64,000 nt of DNA from a phage: NCBI GenBank assembly GCA_023551395.1, contig GCA_023551395.1_3945.1. The stretch is one strand, 5' to 3'. Both the position numbers and the translations under genes were made by a program. Of the stretch, positions 44,255 to 63,782 are shown in pieces. The notes under the pieces are model-generated. The model worked only from the letters and a program-made list of their open reading frames with translations, had not been told where the DNA came from and did not search any database. How positions within the stretch are numbered: the stretch's first letter is position 1; every line of letters begins with the position of its first letter.

Positions 44255-45040
44255 ATGGGTATTGTAAAAATCATCAATGGCGATATCTTTGCAGCATTTG
44301 ATAAAGGTAAGTTTGACATCATTGGTCACGGTTGCAACTGTATGAATTTAATGGGTGCAGGTATCGCTGACAAGATTTCTAAACTTTACCCAAAAGCATA
44401 TGAGACCGATACAGAAGTTTACCTCTATGCAGGTGGTATAGTTCACAAACCCTGTGAAAATCTACTGGGTAATTTCTCTGTAGCACGTTTAGAACAAGGC
44501 CGTATAGCTAACCTTTACACTCAGCTTAAGACTGGTAAAGATGCCCGATACAGTGCTTTAGAGTCATCTTTGAAACAACTTAACAGATACTGTGAAGTCA
44601 ATCAGTTGAAGAAAGTTGGGTTACCTATGATTGGTGCAGGTATCGGTGGACTAGACCCTCAAGCCGTCACAGTTATCATTAATCAGGTGATGAAGAGTGT
44701 AGATGTGTATCTTTATGTCTACGAAGGAGAGATGTACCACAAGTTACGCTCAGGTTGGAAGAACTACTGTGAACCAGAATACTTTGCAGGTGTAGCAGTG
44801 TTCACAGATAACGCAGTTACCCTCTTCAGACGAAGAAAAGGTAAGATACATCAAAGTAACCCTCCGGTTGAAAAGATGTCTCTAAGTAACGCTCTAGTTA
44901 CCCACCTGTCGAAGAGCAATCACAGGATTGCAGTAACATTTGGCAGTGATGCAGATACTTATATCTATGCAAGAACTGATGAGGATATCGAGACAGTTTT
45001 CTCTTCACCAGAAGTTACCTTCTTAGACGCAAAGAACTAA
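44255..45040 (+). CDS. macro-domain (ADP-ribose-binding/processing) protein
   Basis: N-terminal IINGDIF...IIGHGCNCMNLMGAGIADKI and later GLPMIGAGIGGLDP match the macro-domain glycine-rich loops. Confidence 0.5.
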   Translation: MGIVKIINGDIFAAFDKGKFDIIGHGCNCMNLMGAGIADKISKLYPKAYETDTEVYLYAGGIVHKPCENLLGNFSVARLEQGRIANLYTQLKTGKDARYSALESSLKQLNRYCEVNQLKKVGLPMIGAGIGGLDPQAVTVIINQVMKSVDVYLYVYEGEMYHKLRSGWKNYCEPEYFAGVAVFTDNAVTLFRRRKGKIHQSNPPVEKMSLSNALVTHLSKSNHRIAVTFGSDADTYIYARTDEDIETVFSSPEVTFLDAKN

Positions 45041-45106
45041 GAAACTCTGTAGGATATTCACAATAGCCTAAGCCTTTCTTATCTGGTAAATTTTTCAGGT
45101 AAGGAG

Positions 45107-45405
45107 GGCTTTTTCATTTCAGAATTGTGCAGGTAGAGTTCTGTAGAGAAATCTGTAGAGAGAATTTTGAACTCCAAAGAGAAAATTCATTTTCAAACTG
45201 TGCAGATAATCTCCAAAGAGCTTTTTCATTTTCAAAACGTGCAGACCACACTCAGGTCGGGCAAGAAAAATCATTTTAGATTTGTGCAGGTAGGTTTTTA
45301 TAGAGAGCCAGACCAACCCCTCTCCCCCTCTTACTCCCCCTCTCCCCAAAAGTCAAGAGAAAAATTTGTAGCGGATTGAAAAATAATTCTTGATTTGTGT
45401 TCTGT
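45107..45405 (+). repeat. array of about 5 direct repeats, consensus TTTTCATTTTCAAAACGTGCAG
   Basis: Copies near 45107, 45177, 45219, 45262 and a degenerate one near 45375; ORFs drawn here by the track are probably spurious. Confidence 0.6.
45314..45348 (-). other. G-quadruplex-capable tract (G-rich on minus strand)
   Basis: Plus strand CCCCTCTCCCCCTCTTACTCCCCCTCTCCCC gives four G-runs of 4 or more on the minus strand. Confidence 0.4.
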
Positions 45406-45469
45406 TTTGTGGTAGTCGTGTGCGCCCGTTTCATTACAGTTTTGCCAAAAATATTTTTAAAATTTTTTC

Positions 45470-45529
45470 TTGACTCTTTGAACGTGGTTATCTAGTATTT
45501 GCATCAACGGGGAGGGAATGACCTTCCCC
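45470..45529 (+). promoter_or_regulatory. sigma70-like promoter plus conserved leader hairpin (type A module)
   Basis: TTGACT-17 nt-TAGTAT, then ATCAACGG and hairpin GGGGAGGG-AATGA-CCTTCCCC, then ACTAAATAAAGTCCTAAACTGGAGATTCAAAAATG. Confidence 0.6.
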
Positions 45530-45561
45530 ACTAAATAAAGTCCTAAACTGGAGATTCAAAA

Positions 45562-45945
45562 ATGGCATATCGTGCACCTAAATTCATCAACAAAGACAAC
45601 TTTCGCAACGCACTGGAGAAGTCACTTGATGAGAATTTTAAAGGTAACATTATCGTTGTTCACGCATTCAATTTTAAGTATGATGTAAACGGGAATAGAA
45701 TCAACCATTACACGGCAACCATGTTAGATGGTACACTTTCAAGTGAAAAAGCCGTACTAAATGCACTGGCAGGACGTGGAAAGGTATTAGTAAGATGTGA
45801 TAAGAGACGTTATCAGGGCGGCGCATATGGTTATGATGATGCTGTTTACCATCTTGAAAATATGGGCTATCAAGTAGAAAAAGCTGGAGCATCACAAATC
45901 ATCGGCAGCGATGGTTATGTAACTATCTTCAAAATTAACAAATAA
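45562..45945 (+). CDS. hypothetical small protein (cluster gene 1)
   Basis: 127 aa; type A leader upstream. Confidence 0.5.
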   Translation: MAYRAPKFINKDNFRNALEKSLDENFKGNIIVVHAFNFKYDVNGNRINHYTATMLDGTLSSEKAVLNALAGRGKVLVRCDKRRYQGGAYGYDDAVYHLENMGYQVEKAGASQIIGSDGYVTIFKINK

Positions 45946-46031
45946 AGTACTTTACAAGGGGCTTATAGTTCGATAAAGTAAGCCCCAGATAAAGAGCTTT
46001 ACCACTCAATCCTAAATTGGAGAACTTAAAA

Positions 46032-46325
46032 ATGGCTATTATCAAAAACGTTGTAATTACTGCAAAGACTCGTGATGACGCTCGCGTTATGGCTAAAAAG
46101 TTATGCGGGAAAGTGGTTGACAACGGAAAACAATCTGCTGTAAGGTGGGGCGTGAAGGTTGATAAACAGTTGAAGTTAAAAAATTCACCGATAAACCTTT
46201 TTACATGTGTAAACACTATCGGGAAGACAAATGTATACACGAAAAAGGCATACATTAGACGCGTAGCATTAACATCCCCCATTCGTACAATGAGAAGTTA
46301 TGCAAAGCTGAAAATTAACAAATAA
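46032..46325 (+). CDS. hypothetical small protein (cluster gene 2)
   Basis: Start at ATG 46032 after GGAG RBS (track ORF starts earlier, in the leader); type B leader; ends KLKINK. Confidence 0.5.
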   Translation: MAIIKNVVITAKTRDDARVMAKKLCGKVVDNGKQSAVRWGVKVDKQLKLKNSPINLFTCVNTIGKTNVYTKKAYIRRVALTSPIRTMRSYAKLKINK

Positions 46326-46410
46326 AGTACTTTACAGGGGGCTTAAAAGCTGATATCTTAAGCCCCAGATAAAGAGCTTTACCACTAAATCCTAAACTGG
46401 AGATTCTAAA

Positions 46411-46923
46411 ATGAAAACTGTAGACGCTACCTTTGAAGTTGTAAAAGAAAAATTTTCCATCATTTACGAAGCAGTTAATTGCTTTGAAGCAAGCCATAAT
46501 CTTGATAATTGGGAATTTACAGATGACCATCAAGGCGGTGTGACGATTAAAAATCCTAGCTGTCAGCGTAATGAATTTAAATATGCAATCCCTTTACATT
46601 ACAGCCTTAAACAGCTTTCAAGTGACTATGCAAAACAAGGCCGGGAAAACCCATCAAAAGAGGCTTACATCAGCTTACAGAAAGAACTAGAAAGAGATTT
46701 AGAGGCTTCAGAATATAACATCGCCGCGAAAGTTGTAGATGCAAACGGTAGCACGGTTTTAGAGAGTTTTTATATTGGTTATGCTTTCGATTGGTGCTAT
46801 CATGACGGCGATGATTTAGAGGATAGACTAAAAGAAGAGGTGAACAACGCAGACGCAGAATCTGAAGTATTAGAACGTTTGGAATCGTTGAAAGACTCAG
46901 TGATGAATATCTTTAAGAACTAA
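46411..46923 (+). CDS. hypothetical acidic protein (cluster gene 3)
   Basis: 170 aa, Asp/Glu-rich; type B leader. Confidence 0.5.
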   Translation: MKTVDATFEVVKEKFSIIYEAVNCFEASHNLDNWEFTDDHQGGVTIKNPSCQRNEFKYAIPLHYSLKQLSSDYAKQGRENPSKEAYISLQKELERDLEASEYNIAAKVVDANGSTVLESFYIGYAFDWCYHDGDDLEDRLKEEVNNADAESEVLERLESLKDSVMNIFKN

Positions 46924-47015
46924 ATAGATTTCTTTACACGGGGTTATCAGACTGATAAGATAGCCCCAGATAAAGAGCTTTATTCAAATCAACCCTTAAA
47001 CTAGGAGATTCTAAA

Positions 47016-47312
47016 ATGAAATTATCAAATCAAGTGCGTGAGAATCTGAGCAAATTACTCAACAAAATTGATTTCATTGAAACATCAAGGAATAGTCATG
47101 ATGTTATGGAATGGTTACACGGCAAAATAAAAGGCCGTCGTGTAGTGATTTGCTTATGGAACAGTTGCAGGGAGTATAAAAAACCTGTATTGCAAGTCAA
47201 TATCTATGATGATACTTTTAAAAGCCCTGTAAAGTCTAAAAACGACTTATTAGAATCCTATGAGATAACTGTAAGTGGCAAAGTATCACGTAAAGAGGAA
47301 ACACCATGTTAA
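47016..47312 (+). CDS. hypothetical small protein (cluster gene 4)
   Basis: 98 aa; type B-like leader. Confidence 0.5.
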   Translation: MKLSNQVRENLSKLLNKIDFIETSRNSHDVMEWLHGKIKGRRVVICLWNSCREYKKPVLQVNIYDDTFKSPVKSKNDLLESYEITVSGKVSRKEETPC

Positions 47313-47638
47313 TGACTGGTATCACTGCAATCATTGCCATTTTCGCGCTATATAAGGCATATAAAGCCTATAATCTAGCAAATAAGGCAATCACACAGCA
47401 GGTTAGAAATAACCTTGTAGAGAGCTTTCTAGGGCGTCTCAGTGATGAGCAAATAAAGCGGCTAGAGATGAGCTTCAGATACAAAGCGAAAACCTATCAG
47501 ATAAGTGACATCTTCAAAGATAATTTTCAGTTAGTTGATGATTATAATTCTCTGATAAATGCTTTAAATGTCAGTGACTTAAAAGACTACTACGCTGTAA
47601 TTGTTCAAGAGTTGAGCAAACGAAAACAAAACTGTTGA
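47306..47638 (+). CDS. small membrane protein (cluster gene 5)
   Basis: 110 aa; N-terminal TM helix. Confidence 0.45.
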   Translation: MLMTGITAIIAIFALYKAYKAYNLANKAITQQVRNNLVESFLGRLSDEQIKRLEMSFRYKAKTYQISDIFKDNFQLVDDYNSLINALNVSDLKDYYAVIVQELSKRKQNC

Positions 47639-47695
47639 CACTGGTTTTTAGATAGATTAAATTACACATCAACGGGGAGGGAATGACCTTCCCCA
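47635..47695 (+). promoter_or_regulatory. sigma70-like promoter plus type A leader hairpin
   Basis: TTGACA-17 nt-TAAATT, then ACACATCAACGGGGAGGGAATGACCTTCCCC. Confidence 0.6.
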
Positions 47696-47727
47696 CTAAA
47701 TAAAGTCCTAAACTGGAGATTCTGAAA

Positions 47728-48000
47728 ATGTATACTACTAACAACGGTCGCACCTTAAATGTCACCTTGCGTCACTATGTAGACGGTGTGATGTGCTTTG
47801 AAGATTTACGGGCTGAGCAACACATCTTAAATTGGCAAGTTGCAGGACTCCAAAAAACTGCTACAGGATACGGGAAAAAGATTCCAACCAGTTGGAAAGT
47901 ACACTACGAAGGACGTTTGCGCAGAATTTATCAGGATGTGCAAAGCAATAGCGCATCGAGTTACATTATAGTAAAAGGCAAAAAACTGCATTTAATGTAA
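47728..48000 (+). CDS. hypothetical small protein (cluster gene 6)
   Basis: 90 aa; type A leader. Confidence 0.5.
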   Translation: MYTTNNGRTLNVTLRHYVDGVMCFEDLRAEQHILNWQVAGLQKTATGYGKKIPTSWKVHYEGRLRRIYQDVQSNSASSYIIVKGKKLHLM

Positions 48001-48086
48001 AGTACTTTACAAGGGGCTTATAGTTCGATAAAGTAAGCCCCAGATAAAGAGCTTTACCACTAAATCCTAAATTGGAGAACTTAAAA

Positions 48087-48491
48087 ATGGCTATTAATAA
48101 CCGTGAATTATCAATTTTAAAAGCACGTTTGACCGTTAACCGGATTAATGTTATCACGTCATCAGCACCAGATGAAACACTGCAAAACATTATTGGGAAG
48201 ATTCAAAGTGTTATCTTAGACGTTGAAAGCGTAAAAAACTCATTGACTGACGTTGCAGCAGGTATCACGCTAGACGGTGCACAACATGAAATGGCCGACA
48301 TGTTAGGCAAATCTAAGGTAATGAATAAAGAGTTAGATTTGAAAATGTTCCGATTTGCTGTTAAAGTGTGGTTATCTGTCGAGTATGATGCTAACTTTGC
48401 AATCGCTGACTTTTTCGCCACTTGGTTGCAGCGTAATTTGACTAATCATGACTTCCGTAATATCTGTGATGCAATCTATGCAGAACTTTAA
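48087..48491 (+). CDS. hypothetical small protein (cluster gene 7)
   Basis: Start at ATG 48087 after GGAG; type B leader. Confidence 0.5.
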   Translation: MAINNRELSILKARLTVNRINVITSSAPDETLQNIIGKIQSVILDVESVKNSLTDVAAGITLDGAQHEMADMLGKSKVMNKELDLKMFRFAVKVWLSVEYDANFAIADFFATWLQRNLTNHDFRNICDAIYAEL

Positions 48492-48500
48492 AAAATTTTG

Positions 48501-48560
48501 TTGACACTGGTTTTTAGATAGATTAAATTACACATCAACGGGGAGGGAATGACCTTCCAC
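48501..48560 (+). promoter_or_regulatory. sigma70-like promoter plus type A leader hairpin
   Basis: TTGACA-17 nt-TAAATT then conserved leader (near-identical copy of 47635-47695, hairpin has one change). Confidence 0.6.
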
Positions 48561-48592
48561 ACTAAATAAAGTCCTAAACTGGAGATTCAAAA

Positions 48593-48796
48593 ATGGCTAT
48601 TATTAATGGTTTAACCATTGAAACTACACACATCAAAGATATCAAAGTTGGTGATATAGTCCTTTCCCACGGCGTAGAAAAAACTGTCACTGCAAAGGAT
48701 ATCAAAGAGGATTCTTTCATGGGTAGGACTCTCTTCGGTGATTCTTATTGCTTAGGCTATCTTGCAGTTTTAAAAGTTGTCAAAAATAACAAATAA
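48593..48796 (+). CDS. hypothetical small protein (cluster gene 8)
   Basis: 67 aa; type A leader. Confidence 0.5.
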   Translation: MAIINGLTIETTHIKDIKVGDIVLSHGVEKTVTAKDIKEDSFMGRTLFGDSYCLGYLAVLKVVKNNK

Positions 48797-48881
48797 AGCA
48801 CTTTACAAGGGGCTTATAGTTCGATAAAGTAAGCCCCAGATAAAGAGCTTTACTACTCAATCCTAAACTGGAGATTCAAAA

Positions 48882-49424
48882 ATGAAATGTTATCACGGAA
48901 CTACTCAAGAAAATTTCCTCAACCTGATTAATAACGGTGATAAACCATCAGGCGCATGGAATTGTTCGGATATGGACGGCAATTTTTACGTGTATCCAGA
49001 AAATAAAATCTATGGCGACGATGATGAAGAGATAACATCGGAGGGCATTCAGCAAGCTCTAGGGAACGCCACTATTACGGCGGCCTTCCAGATGAAAACC
49101 CAAAATATTGTTATCTTAGAACTCGATATTCCAGATGATGAGCTAAATGATGATTATTCTTGTGATAATATGTCGAGTGTAGCAAGTTTTACAGAGTACT
49201 TTGATGTAAACTGGATTAAAAAGGTCTATACAACAGAGTTTAACGCTATGTATTCGCCTTTTTGTCTTCCTTCACTGGATAACCCAAATATGAACTATCT
49301 TGATGAGACATTAGAACTACTTGCTAAAAGTGTTCAACAGTCGGACAGTATTCAGGTTTTTTGTGACATCATGGATACACTGACAGGAAACATCGCAGAA
49401 GAGGATTTAAAGAGCTTTTTCTAA
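48882..49424 (+). CDS. hypothetical highly acidic protein (cluster gene 9)
   Basis: 180 aa, many Asp/Glu; type B leader. Confidence 0.5.
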   Translation: MKCYHGTTQENFLNLINNGDKPSGAWNCSDMDGNFYVYPENKIYGDDDEEITSEGIQQALGNATITAAFQMKTQNIVILELDIPDDELNDDYSCDNMSSVASFTEYFDVNWIKKVYTTEFNAMYSPFCLPSLDNPNMNYLDETLELLAKSVQQSDSIQVFCDIMDTLTGNIAEEDLKSFF

Positions 49425-49490
49425 AAACCTATGCAATCACCTTATAAACACTATTTAGCCCCTTACAGGGGCTTTTGGGAGGCTTAAATC

Positions 49491-49724
49491 ATGCTTACAA
49501 CCGTTTACCTCATCCTTTCTATTTGTAACGGTCATTCATGCGATTTTAAAGGGCTTGAAGAGTTTACAGGAAGTAAAGAAAATGCTATTCAAGTTTGCCA
49601 GATAGCAAGGAAAGACTATCCCGCTAGTGATGATATACAATGTTACTTTAAGACAGAAGATGACGACGGAATCTATTTCGACAGCGTAGATGGTCAGTAT
49701 GAAATTATCATTGAAAAAGACTAG
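49491..49724 (+). CDS. small secreted-type protein (cluster gene 10)
   Basis: 77 aa; hydrophobic N-terminus. Confidence 0.45.
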   Translation: MLTTVYLILSICNGHSCDFKGLEEFTGSKENAIQVCQIARKDYPASDDIQCYFKTEDDDGIYFDSVDGQYEIIIEKD

Positions 49725-49780
49725 ACAAGCCTGATAAAAATCTGTAAATTGTCAATCAACGGGGAGGGAATGACATCCCC
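49722..49780 (+). promoter_or_regulatory. promoter plus type A leader hairpin
   Basis: TAGACA-17 nt-TAAATT, then GTCAATCAACGGGGAGGGAATGACATCCCCC. Confidence 0.5.
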
Positions 49781-49815
49781 CACTAAGTACAATCCTTAAA
49801 CTAGGAGATTCAAAA

Positions 49816-50157
49816 ATGGCTTATGTAACCGTAATTACCGATAAAGAAAATTCATCTTGGTCAACTCAAGTAAGTGATAAGATGTCACCTATGCAGTGCC
49901 TAAAATACTTTGAACAGTGGAACAAAGGCGAGGACACAAGCCCCTTTCAAGTGATGCAGATTATCCATGTAGACAACGAAGGGAATAAAACGACCTTGAA
50001 CAGTGAATACTACGCAAGCCGTTTTGAAACGAGAAGTAAAACAATGAAGCTTTTACGTGAATCCGGTTATGCCCATATCGCCGCGTTAATCTGGGATGAC
50101 CTGCTAAAAAGTCAGCGTATCAGCTATGTAAAGCCTGAAAAAATATTCATCAGTTAA
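49816..50157 (+). CDS. hypothetical small protein (cluster gene 11)
   Basis: 113 aa; type A leader. Confidence 0.5.
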   Translation: MAYVTVITDKENSSWSTQVSDKMSPMQCLKYFEQWNKGEDTSPFQVMQIIHVDNEGNKTTLNSEYYASRFETRSKTMKLLRESGYAHIAALIWDDLLKSQRISYVKPEKIFIS

Positions 50158-50377
50158 TCAATAACTTACAAAAAACTTTTAAAAAAGTGTTGACAATACC
50201 CCTTGACATTGGTAACTTTGTTCGAGGGGGTTTATCTAAAAGGGATTCACTTAAAAGATTCTTTATAGATAAGCTCAAAAAATTACTTGCAATCAACTAT
50301 CAAAACAAGTAAATTACTAATCAACGGGAAGGCAATAGCCTCCCCACTAAATAAAGTCCTAAACTGGAGATTCTAAA

Positions 50378-50908
50378 ATGAACAAATTTCAAGCTATCAA
50401 CTTCATTCGTTCAAATGCTGTAATGTCTAAGCCTGTAAAAGATACATACGAATTCCGTTGTAATGGGGTACATTTCGCAACAATCACCAAATCAGAAAAC
50501 GGGGCTTATTACGTTCATCGTCGTAATGTTGCAACCGTTGTAGTCTCTCACTTTATGCAAGCTGTAGCGGAATTATTACCGTTATTCTTAGAGATTTACT
50601 TAGATGAGTGTAAAAACGTTCACAACCACGTTAAAAGCCTTTTAAACGGTTATAAAATGGCTTATGAACGCTCTATCAAGTCCTTAAACAAGTTTTACAA
50701 TGCACCTGCAAATACTGTTTCAATGGCTTATGATGTAAATGGTGAGTTAGTTAGTCTCTTTAAAGTGGAAGAAATTAAACTGTATAATTTACGTCCTAGT
50801 GGTTACTCTAAGACTCTTGGTGAAGGTTTAACATTCAATATCAAGAACTTAGAAAAAACTTTAAAAGATATTGAAAAAGATATTGACGAGACAATCAAAA
50901 GTCTGTAA
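50378..50908 (+). CDS. hypothetical protein (cluster gene 12)
   Basis: 176 aa; type A leader with covarying hairpin GGGAAGGC-AATA-GCCTCCCC. Confidence 0.5.
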   Translation: MNKFQAINFIRSNAVMSKPVKDTYEFRCNGVHFATITKSENGAYYVHRRNVATVVVSHFMQAVAELLPLFLEIYLDECKNVHNHVKSLLNGYKMAYERSIKSLNKFYNAPANTVSMAYDVNGELVSLFKVEEIKLYNLRPSGYSKTLGEGLTFNIKNLEKTLKDIEKDIDETIKSL

Positions 50909-50974
50909 ATTGTCAATCAACGGGGAGGGAATGACCTTCCCCACTAAATAAAATCCTAAACTGGAGTTATCAAG

Positions 50975-51238
50975 ATGGAAAACGTAGAATTAACCACACT
51001 TTTACAAATTGCAACCGACAAAGAAGATGTAGCATTATTTCACCGTATCGAAAGTGATTTGTTCAATGGTGAAATCATCAAAGAATCTTACGAAGTTGTT
51101 GGATTCAAAGATGGTAAAGCGTTTGGCTTTTTTGACCTCGATAAAGGCAACGCTGTTACAAAGTATGATGTTGTATCTTGTGAGATTCTTACAAAATACA
51201 ACGAAAAAAGGCTTGCAACATACGCCAATATGCAGTAA
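50975..51238 (+). CDS. hypothetical small protein (cluster gene 13)
   Basis: 87 aa; TTGACG-17 nt-TAAATT promoter and type A leader. Confidence 0.5.
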   Translation: MENVELTTLLQIATDKEDVALFHRIESDLFNGEIIKESYEVVGFKDGKAFGFFDLDKGNAVTKYDVVSCEILTKYNEKRLATYANMQ

Positions 51239-51304
51239 ATTACTAATCAACGGGAGGCGATAACCTCCCCACTAAATAAAACCCTTAAACTAGGAGATTC
51301 AAAA

Positions 51305-51553
51305 ATGGCAACTATCCGCGCTACTGTTAACGAGTTCGGTTTTTCCTCTCTGGATGTTAAATTTGACATTACAGGCACTGATAACGCCTTTGAAATGGTG
51401 AAAGGTCTTATCAGTCAGACCATCAAAGATTATAATCCTTCGGATGAGTTCTGGGAGGAAACAAAACAAGAAGTTATCAAGGATGGTTATACTTATCACT
51501 ATTGGGGAGAAAAAATCGTCTCCCTGTACTACAACAAACAAGATTATAACTAA
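51305..51553 (+). CDS. hypothetical small protein (cluster gene 14)
   Basis: 82 aa; type A leader with variant hairpin GGGAGG-CGATAA-CCTCCC. Confidence 0.5.
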   Translation: MATIRATVNEFGFSSLDVKFDITGTDNAFEMVKGLISQTIKDYNPSDEFWEETKQEVIKDGYTYHYWGEKIVSLYYNKQDYN

Positions 51554-51589
51554 TCGACGCAGCGGGGCTAAATAGCCCCAGATACCTGA

Positions 51590-51616
51590 AAAGCTCCTTC
51601 TCATAGGGGCTTTTTT
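51590..51616 (+). terminator. Rho-independent terminator ending the small-gene cluster
   Basis: Hairpin followed by TTTTTT at 51607-51616. Confidence 0.45.
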
Positions 51617-51619
51617 ACG

Positions 51620-53180
51620 TCTATTGAATCATTATACAATCCCTTTCCCTCACCTTTCCAGAATCTTATCAGACCTTAAAAGCAATAACTCTATAGTCTA
51701 CTCTATAACCTTTTATCAAATCAACTTAAATAAAAGCCAATAACCCCAGAAAGGGGATGGCCCATTTAAACGCTCTATAAAGCTCTATAACAGCCTTATC
51801 AACCTAACTTAAGGGATTGCATTAACCAACCTTAAAAAGCTCTTTACAGGGCTTTATAGAGGCTTAAAAGAATCTTATAAGGTTATAAGCTTTATTATCT
51901 CGTTAGCTATCTTGTGAACTACTAAAAAGGGCTTGTTATTGTCTTAAAAGTATGTTATATGGGCTTTAAAGTTACTTTGAAGTAGCTTAAAAGTTACGTA
52001 AATGCTAGCCCCCTTAACATTTTCTTAACAATTTCTTAACAAACCCTACATAGTTATGCTTTTAAGGCACTTGTTAGCAACTTGTTAGTCCCTTGTTAAA
52101 TCTCTGTTAAGACCACGTAAAAGCCTTGTAAGAGTCTTTGACATAGCCTTTAAAGCCCCTGTAAAGCCCTATAAAGAGGTATCTGTACAGTTGGGGGGTA
52201 GATACTAGGAAGAGACTTAAAAGAGCTTACAAGGAGCTATAGAGAGCTTTTAAGAGGTATGTTTAAAGAATCACTAAGAAAGGAAAGGGAACGATAAGAA
52301 AAGAGATAGTGACCATGTTAATAGCTTGTTAAAAAGATTAAACACTTGTTAGAGACTTGTTAATTATCTTAACAAAATAACTCTTAAAAATTAACTTGTT
52401 AGCTCTTGTTAGCCATCTGTTAAGACTCTGTAAAGCCTATGTATCAACTGTTAAGAAACTGTTACGCTCTTGTTAGTTCTGTTGAGAATCTGTTAAGACC
52501 TTTGAAGAGATGTTAAGGAGATGTGAGAACTGTTAAGAGATTGTTAAGGATATTTTAAAATTTTGCAAAGTACTTGTAAGGGAGCTGTTAAGGGCTACCA
52601 AGCAGATATACATCTTCTACAGATATTTTTCAGTTCCTTCAAAGACCCTAAAAAATGACTTGATAGTCCTATTTTATAAAAATTTTAAAAATCTGAATAA
52701 TTACCTATACAGTCTTTCTAAAATACAGGTAATAACAGGCTTATAAGATACCTTGTTAGTACCGTGTTAGACCTTGTGAGATAAGGTCTGTAAAGATATT
52801 CCTGTTAAGTTTGTTAAAACAGTCTATATAGAGGCTTAGTAATACCTAGTGAACACCTATAGAGAGTGTCATAGCTAACCTAGAGATTAAGAGGTGTATA
52901 GGAGCTTCTAAGAGGGTATAGAAAGATGGTTAAGGTGATTGTATAGGTTGTTAAGAAGGCTTGTTAGAGGGCTTGTTAGAAGGGTTATACAGAGGGCTAT
53001 TAAGACCACTAGATAGATACTAAGATACTATATAGTACTATATAACTATATATAGAGAGTAAGCTTAAGAAGGTTGTTAAGAAGGGTAGATATTTTGTTC
53101 ACATATGATGGTGACCCAGAGGTTGGGACAACCGATAAAAATTTTATAAAAATTAAAAAGCCCCCAATTAAGGAGGCTCT
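51620..53180. repeat. 1.5 kb ORF-free region with dense short direct repeats
   Basis: More than 25 copies of (C)TTGTTAG / CTGTTAAGA / TGTTAAG at 9-12 bp spacing (densest 52040-52120, 52320-52560, 52740-52800, 52920-52990), plus repeated CTATAAAG/CTTTATAGA motifs; lies between convergent gene blocks. Confidence 0.7.
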
Positions 53181-53189
53181 TAAGATATT

Positions 53190-53813
53190 TTAAATCAGTG
53201 TTTCCAGAACTGTTTTTAATGATGACTTGGTTGTCTGATAAAAATGAGTAAAGCCATTGTTGTTATCAAATACCTGCATCATGATATCATCTCCCTTGAT
53301 TGGGTACACTCGGATATCATAGTGAAAACCATTAAAGACACAAGAGCCATTACAGAATGCACTAAAGTCATCAACTGAGATATACTCTTCATGTCCTGTG
53401 ATTTTTATACAAACACCTTTACTCGGTCTCTTAGGGTTGATATCTTCCATCACAGACATACTCTGTCCACCAAGAGATACCATAGTGACCACTTTACGGT
53501 TCTTCTGTCTAAAGTACATTTTAACTTTCTGCAAAGTGTCTTCATAGAACGGATAAGACCTTTCTACAAAGATTCCTTCAAGTGGCTCTTTACCATTTTC
53601 AACTTCTCTGTTATGCCGTACTGCAAAGATAATTTGTTCGAACCAGTCAAGATTTTCTTCGGAGAGTGCTTCCCGAACATCCTTCCAGTCAAGTACTAAG
53701 TAGTTACCTTCAACTTCTTTTAAGTTATCTTTTTCCATATCTATCACACCATTATCGTAAAACTTGATATTCTGGTACTGCGAATTTATTACTATTGTTC
53801 TTGATGAGGTCAT
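53190..53813 (-). CDS. hypothetical protein
   Basis: 207 aa; start may be the internal Met near 53738. Confidence 0.45.
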   Translation of the reverse strand: MTSSRTIVINSQYQNIKFYDNGVIDMEKDNLKEVEGNYLVLDWKDVREALSEENLDWFEQIIFAVRHNREVENGKEPLEGIFVERSYPFYEDTLQKVKMYFRQKNRKVVTMVSLGGQSMSVMEDINPKRPSKGVCIKITGHEEYISVDDFSAFCNGSCVFNGFHYDIRVYPIKGDDIMMQVFDNNNGFTHFYQTTKSSLKTVLETLI

Positions 53814-63620: not shown

Positions 63621-63697
63621 CTCTGTTTAGCTCAGCTTGGTAGAGCGTTCCGTTTGGGGCGGTAAGGCCGGAGGTTCAAGTCCTCCAACAGAGACCA
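63621..63697 (+). tRNA. tRNA-Pro (anticodon UGG)
   Basis: Hand-folded cloverleaf: 7 bp acceptor CTCTGTT/AACAGAG, D-arm GCTCAGCTTGGTAGAGC, anticodon loop TTTGGGG, T-arm GGAGGTTCAAGTCCTCC, encoded CCA. One U-U mismatch in anticodon stem. Confidence 0.65.
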
Positions 63698-63704
63698 AAT
63701 TAAT

Positions 63705-63782
63705 GTTCCAGTAGACAAAACGGTAAAGTCACCACTCTTTCAAAGTGGATATTTGAGGGTTCAAATCCCTTCTGGAACGCCA
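63705..63782 (+). tRNA. tRNA-Glu (anticodon UUC)
   Basis: Acceptor GTTCCAG/CTGGAAC, perfect anticodon stem CCACT/AGTGG with loop CTTTCAA, T-loop TTCAAAT, encoded CCA. Confidence 0.6.

Follow-up and report, generated by a model that had tools for sequence, protein, structure and literature searches.

The closest known system to the locus described here is the PeSL cassette of T4-type phages, found in RB49/phi1, T4/PST and KVP40/nt-1 (PMC2839356; PMC4122927). A PeSL is a repeat of about 100 bp in which an A/T-rich tract with the upstream stop codon is followed by a sigma70-like early promoter, a stem-loop, a Shine-Dalgarno sequence (SD) and a start codon; its stem-loop pairs a G-tract with a C-tract, allows G-T pairs, and lies between -35 and -10, over the -10, or 3' of the -10 (PMC2839356). 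PeSLs are densely packed in a hyperplastic region, where they flank ORFans, and the indel junctions between close relatives fall inside the repeats (PMC2839356). Measured promoter activity, terminator or attenuator activity and the formation of minicircles also belong to the description of the class (PMC2839356). We analysed a 64,000-nt stretch of phage DNA (GenBank assembly GCA_023551395.1, contig GCA_023551395.1_3945.1; hereafter the window), in which positions 45400-51620 hold a cluster of small plus-strand genes, g1 to g14, most of them preceded by one of two repeated promoter/hairpin/leader modules, type A and type B. We consider it likely that these modules drive ORFan early genes and mediate the recombination of gene cassettes.

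The likeness of this locus to PeSLs, including the sigma70-like promoter pattern of each module, is read from sequence architecture alone. As in PeSLs, the upstream stop codon lies in an A/T-rich tract, and an SD and a start codon close the module at its 3' end. The stem-loop is again made of a G-tract and a C-tract, placed in the spacer and over the -10 in type B and 3' of the -10 in type A. The Felix-O1-type modules are likewise confined to a hyperplastic region (45.4-51.6 kb) around ORFans, with indel junctions between relatives, two of them resolved, inside modules. Unlike known PeSLs, they belong to a myovirus of the Ounavirinae and not to a T4-type phage, they fall into two sharply defined and highly conserved architectures, the type A stem-loop is predicted to lie within the transcript, and the leader carries an SD mini-hairpin. 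Module queries matched essentially only Ounavirinae records (Felixounavirus, Mooglevirus, Suspvirus and Erwinia Kolesnikvirus), with few exceptions that include the phage SA1 record, and the likeness to T4-type PeSLs is one of kind and architecture, not of sequence family. As PeSLs are defined by architecture, we treat the Ounavirinae modules as an independent family of the PeSL kind. No report of PeSLs in Ounavirinae, or outside T4-type phages, was found in the searchable literature. The kind of system is already known, from the T4-type PeSLs (PMC2839356) and from repeats listed for phage Felix O1 in 2010 (PMC3185647); its extension to the Ounavirinae is new.

Over its full length, the cluster region is 89-94% identical to Felixounavirus genomes. 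It matched 258 records at high identity and 299 at lower identity, and coverage in the 299 related records is complete at one extreme (100%) and falls to a few per cent at the other. On sequence similarity, we assign the phage to the Felix-O1-like myoviruses (Felixounavirus) and the cluster to their variable, hyperplastic early-gene region. Its counterpart in Felix O1 is ORF15-23 (ORF, open reading frame), flanked by terminators t13 and t23; the block is limited there by a macro-domain "phosphatase" gene and t13 on one side and by a 1.6-kb non-coding stretch on the other. The Felix O1 genome paper lists direct repeats of 57 bp and 39 bp here without interpretation, and its promoter list omits both; when compared, the 57-bp repeat proved to be the type B core and the 39-bp repeat the type A core (PMC3185647). 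Reverse-transcription PCR in the same study showed ORFs 16, 20, 21 and 22 peaking at 5 min (PMC3185647).

The fourteen plus-strand ORFs of 67-180 aa that the sequence-only reading had reported are all present, at 45562-51553, with two starts to be moved to the ATG after the SD (46032 instead of TTG 46017, and 48087 instead of TTG 48072). A module had been claimed for every one of them. This holds for twelve, seven with type A and five with type B, but not for ORF 47306 (g5), whose start overlaps the end of the preceding ORF, or for ORF 49491 (g10), which lies 3' of a terminator-like hairpin at 49457-49477 and has its own SD. The type A core ATCAACGGG(R)(R)GG occurs in seven plus-strand copies, all within 45503-51258, against a chance expectation of 1.6; one further match with two mismatches, on the minus strand at 44860, is unrelated. 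The type B core CCCCAGATAAAGAGCTTTA occurs five times, all within 45983-48852 (0.02 expected), and the ribosome-binding motif CCTWAAYTRGAG, common to both module types, has nine copies in the cluster. No plus-strand module copy was found outside 45.4-51.6 kb in the window and in positions 1-50 kb of Felix O1, which together amount, by coordinate offset, to essentially one whole genome of this type.

A module spans about 85-95 bp from the -35 to the ATG, and the repeat homology extends over about 105-115 bp. Its parts follow in a fixed order: an A/T-rich tract with the upstream stop, a sigma70-type promoter with a spacer of exactly 17 bp, a G-C-clamped stem-loop, an SD leader and the ATG. The A/T-rich tract upstream of the -35, which carries the stop codon of the upstream gene, is exemplified by AAAATTAACAAATAAAGTACTTTACA; upstream stop codons lie 0-12 nt 5' of the promoter hexamers or inside them, and in g12 and g13 the stop codon TAA doubles as bases 1-3 of the -10 TAAATT. 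An SD (GGAG or AGGAG) stands 7-9 nt 5' of the ATG in 12 of 12 modules.

Type B had been described as a leader placed right after a stop codon. Its hairpin does lie directly 3' of the stop, but the module also holds a promoter pattern: a consensus promoter scan found TTTACA-17-TAAAGT/TATCTT/TAAGAT in all five copies, and type B is accordingly predicted to be a sigma70-type promoter too (TTTACA-17-TAnnnT), with the hairpin in the spacer and overlapping the -10. We compared type B across 15 related loci (Felixounavirus, Mooglevirus, Erwinia Kolesnikvirus and phage PMBT37), which supplied 43 distinct variants. In all 43, the -35 TTTACA and positions 1, 2 and 6 of the -10 are invariant and always 17 bp apart. 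Since -10 positions 1 and 2 are bases of the hairpin loop, which are under no structural constraint, their invariance is explained by promoter function only. For type A, the pattern TTGACx-17-TAAATT/TAGTAT and the hairpin sequences quoted in the sequence-only reading match the DNA. Among 84 type A copies, 83 have TAnnnT 4 nt before ATCAAC together with a -35 that matches at least four of six positions at exactly 17 bp. Unrelated sequence often surrounds the -35, which then falls within the upstream gene or over its stop codon, and the promoter pattern is kept across at least six unrelated upstream contexts, some of them within coding sequence. Erwinia phages show further promoter/stem-loop designs, such as TTGACA-18-TAAAAT with the -10 as the loop of GGGGG/CCCCC. 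A reading of GGGGCTTA as a MotA box (T4 middle promoter) was ruled out by its wrong spacing to the -10.

The 9-bp stem of type B occurs in at least ten forms, including GGGGCUUAU/GUAAGCCCC, GGGGCUUAA/UUAAGCCCC, GGGG(U/C)UAUC/GAUAGCCCC and GGGGUUUAUA/UAUAAGCCCC, with GGUGUUUAGA/UCUAAGCACC in Erwinia phages. Direct alignment with MAFFT gapped the 3' arm of one stem class and was replaced by an arms-only, base-anchored alignment of 27 distinct stems, tested against 500 shuffles. In this alignment, which is anchored on the stem and whose covariation figures are to be read as such, 91.1% of the stem cells are paired as against 78.3% in shuffles, 31 cells are altered on both sides as against 8.6 (in both cases 0 of 500 shuffles reached the observed value), and the covariation score is 0.370 as against 0.127. 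When the partners were slid as a control, pairing fell to 20-52%. At pair 3, G-C becomes U-A in Erwinia-type loci, and the last 1-4 bases of the -10 hexamer, which belong to the 3' arm, covary with the 5' arm. Wherever pair 5 is a wobble, it is 5'U.G3', which on the other strand would be an A.C mismatch; the selected structure is therefore plus-strand RNA or single-stranded plus-strand DNA. The type B hairpin is thus well supported by covariation.

The type A hairpin was examined in 53 distinct 36-nt variants. Folding gave a mean energy of -10.9 kcal/mol with a mean z of -4.4; energies range from -9 to -15 kcal/mol in the copies of the window and from -6 to -17 kcal/mol across all variants, and in 41 of the 47 variants in the strand comparison the stem begins at a constant distance from the preceding ATCAAC. 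Purine and pyrimidine runs make up the arms, and most of their variation consists of paired indels, with forms such as GGGGAGGG/CCUUCCCC, GGGAGG/CCUCCC, GGGGGA/UCCCCC, GGGGC/GCCCC and GGGAAGGC/GCCUCCCC. An RNase III reading of this hairpin was ruled out, the stem being just 6-8 bp long. In all modules, the SD itself sits in the 3' arm of a mini-hairpin of 3-4 bp located 10-25 nt upstream of each ATG (for example 47705-47717), both sides of which differ from allele to allele and from genus to genus: UCC-UAAACU-GGA and UCCU-UAAACU-AGGA, and in Erwinia phages CCUU-AUA-AAGG and CCUC-AAA-GAGG. Compared with shuffles, whole leaders also fold better (z -1.8 to -3.0).

The cassettes were mapped in 15 related loci. 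Whole cassettes are present or absent among them, namely g1, g2, g8, g9-g10, g13 and 11 gene families that the window lacks, and phage DE7 has a reordered cluster, the sole reordering in the map. One and the same gene stands behind type A or type B, depending on the phage (g1 with A1, A2, B1 and B2), and all four combinations of hairpin type with the ribosome-binding alleles CCUAAAYUGGAG and CCUUAAACUAGGAG were found. Two indel junctions were resolved within modules: Felix O1 lacks g8-g10, and its g7-g11 junction consists of the left half of the module that precedes g8 in the window and the right half of the module that precedes g11; phage humlepung lacks g13, and its g12-g14 junction switches parent at the SD. 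In Erwinia phages type B is retained, its stems diverged and compensated, and most of the genes next to it are different. These two junctions support the conclusion that the modules mediate shuffling, and together with the 15-locus comparison they bear out the earlier suggestion of cassette shuffling by recombination. The shared C-terminal codons noted in that context are also present, as KINK, KINK and KNNK at the ends of the ORFs that terminate at 45945, 46325 and 48796. In mechanistic terms, near-identical modules would recombine homologously and thereby delete, insert or reorder whole gene-plus-module cassettes.

A hairpin close to the 5' end protects E. coli mRNAs against 5'-end-dependent decay, and 5'-terminal stabilising stem-loops of this sort, as in the ompA 5' untranslated region, were reportedly described by Emory, Bouvet and Belasco in 1992. 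Like the ompA stem-loop, the type A element is a stable hairpin within a few nucleotides of a 5' end, here a predicted one. It begins 11 nt 3' of the -10, and with transcription starting 7-8 nt after the -10, 3-4 nt ahead of it would stay unpaired; the sigma70 start is more likely to lie at AAC, 2-4 nt inside the 5' end ATCAACGG that had been proposed earlier. The type A mRNA would begin at about AAC-GGGG with its own hairpin some 3-5 nt from the 5' end, and, to judge from the E. coli 5'-terminal hairpins, this hairpin may shield the message from 5'-end-dependent decay by RppH and RNase E. A type B transcript would instead start at the A of CCCCAGAUAAAG (CCCC-A-GAUAAAG), 3' of the hairpin, which would be absent from it. 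As the type B hairpin sits 5' of its own start, it would be confined to read-through RNA from the upstream cassette, where it may act as a 3'-end protector or an attenuator that insulates neighbouring cassettes. We infer promoter activity, transcript ends and RNA-level hairpin function from these patterns.

A further copy of the stem-loop bears on the 3' ends. It lies 3' of g14, has no promoter, and joins a type-A-like 5' flank to a type-B-like 3' flank (CAACGGGG... in most relatives). It is kept in all 12 loci that have g14, and a canonical terminator follows directly in 11 of the 12, which argues for a role at mRNA 3' ends and, because of that adjoining terminator, against such stem-loops, which have no U-tract, being efficient terminators by themselves. 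The missing U-tract is also why we prefer a stabiliser or weak attenuator to a terminator as the likely role of the hairpins.

Several observations weigh against the modules being promoters with selected RNA hairpins that switch on early genes. The copies are kin by descent and gene conversion, so that the shuffle-based statistics are inflated and part of the sequence conservation could arise without selection. For type A, MAFFT combined with RNAalifold returned four invariant outer G-C pairs and zero covariation, the indel-rich stems being misaligned; a structure-anchored count was positive (paired 88.8% versus 74.5% in shuffles; both-side changes 36 versus 12.8), but it depends on, and is biased by, anchoring to the folded structure. 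Plus-strand folding beats minus-strand folding by just 0.7-1.5 kcal/mol on average. Reverse-transcription PCR puts Felix O1 ORFs 14, 17, 19 and 23 at 25 min (PMC3185647), and therefore not all cassettes are immediate-early, and a published PeSL stem-loop was a strong terminator in a reporter (PMC2839356). Finally, no transcript 5' or 3' ends were found in the searchable literature for any Felix-O1-like phage, which makes promoter use and transcript starts predictions. The type A hairpin is supported less rigorously than that of type B, and U.G orientation is a better strand indicator than folding energy. The compensatory changes proposed in the sequence-only reading are thus real, by covariation, for type B and weaker for type A, where the structure-anchored count alone speaks for them; its broader views, that the hairpins are selected as RNA structure and the repeats are regulatory modules, agree with the plus-strand covariation and U.G orientation in the one case and with promoter-pattern conservation and hairpin covariation in the other.

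These data also bear on other explanations of the repeats. Type B could be a purely post-transcriptional intercistronic element, an RNase III-like processing site in a polycistronic early mRNA from the type A promoters, at which a cut would make the downstream ribosome-binding site accessible, with the hairpin retained by the upstream message as its 3' stabiliser. The position of the hairpin directly 3' of the stop codon would suit this, as would the covariation, by which the hairpin acts as RNA; in the folded form, an invariant 5-bp lower stem (CUUUA/UAAAG) is set off from the 9-bp stem by a 3x3 internal loop, and the two together make an interrupted helix of about 14 bp. As at the RNase III sites of the T7 early region, a structured element would stand between consecutive early genes and the hairpin would stay on the 3' end of the upstream message. 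The T7 sites have an interrupted duplex of about 20 bp, against 9 + 5 bp for the helices here (14 interrupted bp being short for RNase III), which also coincide with promoter hexamers; the lower stem never varies and so is beyond the covariation test. The invariant bases of type B are moreover those of a sigma70 promoter, including the two loop bases without a structural role. We therefore regard a purely post-transcriptional element as unlikely, while noting that it is compatible with a promoter, since the hairpin may be processed in RNA while the DNA stays a promoter. It is slightly less likely still that the stem-loops are Rho-independent terminators and each gene a classical promoter-gene-terminator moron. 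The public annotation of phage ASO1A does place a plus-strand terminator at the type A hairpin after the promoter, that of phage XTG1 places a minus-strand terminator there, and the RB49 PeSL stem-loop cut reporter expression as much as rrnB T1 (PMC2839356). The hairpins here are, however, followed by no U-tract but by ACUAAAUAAAG in type A and AGAUAAAGAG in type B, and on the minus strand by GUUGAU. A terminator scan left them uncalled, the true terminators being at 45070-45111 and about 51589-51616, and the promoter-less copy after g14 is backed by such a true terminator 10-20 nt downstream. A type A hairpin would lie about 4 nt into its own transcript, where efficient termination would silence its gene. 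Lambdoid morons resemble the present cassettes as autonomous expression units for accessory genes, inserted between genes and variable among relatives, but they differ individually, have their own promoter and terminator, and are expressed from prophages, whereas the control regions here are one repeated family in a virulent phage, with hairpins that lack a U-tract.

Two further explanations are less probable still. The inverted repeats overlap the -10 in type B and the +1 region in type A, as is typical of operators, and their outer GGGG/CCCC is conserved, so that a dimeric phage or host repressor closing the early promoters might be thought to bind them as DNA. Yet the arms differ (CUUAU, CUUAA, UUAUC, UUUAUA, UGUUUAGA) without losing their complementarity, neither stem length nor loop size is constant, and every wobble is a U.G on the plus strand, where the other strand would have an A.C mismatch; we give DNA operators very little weight. 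Just as improbable, in our view, are neutral scars or small selfish repeats, spread by recombination and homogenised by gene conversion without a regulatory role. The very high identity between copies and their recombination, seen in the junction analysis, would fit, but every copy lies on the plus strand exactly between a stop and a start codon, the promoter-critical bases are invariant where their neighbours vary, the stems covary, and the architecture persists in Erwinia phages despite diverged sequence. Promoter/hairpin/leader modules that also serve recombination remain our preferred reading. A more speculative extension, to which we assign a low probability, is that the invariant leader parts form a shared code for one trans-acting factor, a phage early/middle protein or a host RNase, that switches the cassettes off or stabilises them all together. 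The parts of this code would be the 5' hairpin that adjoins ATCAAC, the sequence CAGAUAAAGAGCUUUA with which type B transcripts would begin, and the SD in its covarying mini-hairpin. If true, it would be a regulon-wide post-transcriptional switch like T4 RegA or RegB, on a mobile cassette. In a wilder variant, A-initiated leaders would be NAD-capped substrates of the g9 protein, whose predicted fold resembles that of ADP-ribosyltransferases (ARTs).

Along the cluster, all on the plus strand, type A module 1 (45470..45564; -35 TTGACT 45470-45475, -10 TAGTAT 45493-45498, hairpin 45509-45529, SD, ATG 45562) precedes g1 (45562..45945, 127 aa, PHROG 4495). Type B module 1 (45951..46034) has its -35 TTTACA at 45951-45956, its -10 TAAAGT at 45974-45979 and its hairpin at 45958-45986 in the spacer and -10, followed by the conserved CAGATAAAGAGCTTTA, the SD and ATG 46032 of g2 (46032..46325, 97 aa, very basic with pI 10.7). 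Type B module 2 (46331..46413; -35 46331-46336, -10 TATCTT 46354-46359, hairpin 46338-46366, ATG 46411) leads into g3 (46411..46923, 170 aa), and type B module 3 (46933..47018; -35 46933-46938, -10 TAAGAT 46956-46961, ATG 47016), whose hairpin GGGGUUAUC/GAUAGCCCC at 46940-46967 has the U.G wobble, leads into g4 (47016-47312), with the module-less g5 (47306-47638) overlapping its end. Type A module 2 (47635..47730; -35 TTGACA 47635-47640, -10 TAAATT 47658-47663, hairpin 47674-47694, ATG 47728) stands before g6 (47728..48000, 90 aa), and type B module 4 (48006..48089; -35 48006-48011, -10 48029-48034, hairpin 48013-48041, ATG 48087) before g7 (48087..48491, 134 aa). In type A module 3 (48501..48595; -35 48501-48506, -10 48524-48529, ATG 48593), the hairpin at 48541-48558 is weakened by one C>A mismatch; its gene is g8 (48593..48796, 67 aa).

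Type B module 5 (48802..48884; -35 48802-48807, -10 48825-48830, hairpin 48809-48837, ATG 48882) is followed by g9 (48882..49424, 180 aa). The terminator-like hairpin AGCCCCUUACAGGGGCU and then UUUU (49457..49477) separate g9 from g10 (49491..49724, 77 aa, acidic), whose own SD is GGGAGG. The -35 TAGACA (49722-49727) of type A module 4 (49722..49818; -10 49745-49750, hairpin 49761-49780, ATG 49816) overlaps the stop of g10, and g11 (49816..50157, 113 aa) follows. Type A module 5 (50287..50380) has -35 TTGCAA at 50287-50292, -10 at 50310-50315, the hairpin GGGAAGGC/GCCUCCCC at 50326-50345 and ATG 50378 of g12 (50378..50908, 176 aa). The last two promoters begin within genes: the -35 TTGACG (50883-50888) of type A module 6 (50883..50977; -10 TAAATT 50906-50911, hairpin 50922-50942, ATG 50975) lies in g12, and the -35 TTGCAA (51213-51218) of type A module 7 (51213..51307; -10 51236-51241, hairpin 51252-51269, ATG 51305) lies in g13 (50975..51238, 87 aa), a gene missing from several relatives. 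After g14 (51305..51553, 82 aa), the cluster ends at 51561..51616 with the promoter-less stem-loop CAGCGGGGCUAAAUAGCCCCAGAUA and the canonical terminator at about 51589-51616 (hairpin plus U6).

The absence of recognisable motifs from the fourteen products, stated in the sequence-only reading, was borne out: none has a Pfam hit, and all belong to PHROGs of unknown function. The fourteen genes are ORFans without annotation, in the early region of a virulent phage. The two products described as strongly acidic are so, with pI 4.56 and net charge -16 for g3 and pI 4.05 and net charge -24 for g9. For g3, a putative DNA mimic in the sequence-only reading, an AlphaFold2 (AF2) model was confident (predicted local distance difference test, pLDDT, 88.7), and a structure search with it gave no informative structural neighbour. 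For g9, the AF2 model from a 17-sequence alignment reached pLDDT 83.8 and a predicted template-modelling score (pTM) of 0.81, and the top 33 Foldseek hits were all ART toxins, with weak scores (E >=0.016, TM 0.3-0.4). In an alignment of 31 family members, HGT, W26 and DDYSCxNM are invariant and Y36 is nearly so, while the candidate catalytic Glu80 is replaced in about 30% of the 31 homologues. No Pfam ART hit was obtained, a profile search of a large protein database returned no annotated relatives, and the only match in a PDB profile search was Tpt1 at the HGT motif, which is non-significant (E 1.2). We conclude that g9 likely has an ART- or Tpt1-like fold. The suggestion that it could be a DNA mimic, as are anti-restriction proteins of the Ocr/ArdA type, finds no support in the model and is unlikely, because the modelled fold is of the enzyme-like alpha/beta ART type. 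Virulent phages are known to carry ARTs, such as T4 Alt, ModA and ModB (PMC10468400). Like these, g9 is an early-region protein with a predicted ART-superfamily-like fold, with a macro-domain gene 3.8 kb upstream; unlike them, it matches no Pfam ART family, has a conserved HGT instead of R-S-E, and its candidate Glu is not invariant.

That macro-domain protein gene (44255-45040, Pfam PF01661, E 1e-7; "phosphatase" in the annotation of relatives) lies directly upstream of the cluster, and its product may work together with the ART-like g9. The upstream boundary is the intrinsic terminator at 45070..45111 (plus strand, terminator scan), which is Felix O1 t13, 3' of the macro-domain gene. Between t13 and the first type A promoter, a repeat unit of about 40 bp (...TTTTTCATTTTCAAA(A/C)YGTGCAGA...) occurs 4-5 times in 45112-45420, together with a CCCCTCTCCCCCTCTTACTCCCCCTCTCCCC tract; the repeats may be iterons or protein-binding sites. 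Inside the cluster, a 160-nt non-coding element (50158-50320) separates g11 from the type A module of g12; with 88-98% identity across Felixounavirus and Mooglevirus, it is better conserved than the adjoining ORFs. It contains tandem TTGACA hexamers, a promoter-like TTGACA-17-TAACTT enclosed by a CCCC...GGGGG stem, and a 19-bp hairpin (-21.3 kcal/mol, z -4.9), and could be a small RNA, an RNase III site or an orphan cassette. Downstream, in the non-coding stretch 51620-53190, linear records of relatives terminate at the window equivalents of about 52002, 52039 and 52599 (site about 52010-52600), and the annotation of phage HP1 gives a 570-bp terminal repeat from about 52008. As these record ends and the HP1 repeat fall at about 52002-52599, the cluster probably abuts the right-hand direct terminal repeat, with transcription towards the genome end. 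An Rfam scan of the window returned two tRNAs only, with no match inside the cluster; the two tRNA genes, at 63621-63779, are the start of the Felix-O1-type tRNA cluster. Among the matching records, GU169904.1 (Staphylococcus phage SA1, 147 kb) carries 89% of the cluster region at 91% identity and is probably a chimeric or contaminated assembly. Public records conflict on the type A hairpin, which is given as minus-strand terminators in XTG1, as a plus-strand terminator in ASO1A and as a 14-nt repeat before the ribosome-binding site in Mordin; their terminator annotation of these hairpins is inconsistent and probably wrong.

Promoter/stem-loop shuffling cassettes, so far seen only in T4-type phages, are thus extended to a second, unrelated group of virulent enterobacterial phages, the Felix O1 relatives, which are widely used for the typing of Salmonella and E. 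coli, biocontrol and therapy. The modules account for the cluster being the main variable block among some 300 sequenced relatives. They offer a compact natural set of promoter/leader parts, with promoters predicted from their sequence to be strong, and they define about 25 cassette genes as candidates for host-takeover or anti-defence roles, including a previously unrecognised, predicted ART-like family. The finding suggests a general route by which virulent phages may build and exchange their early-gene arsenals.

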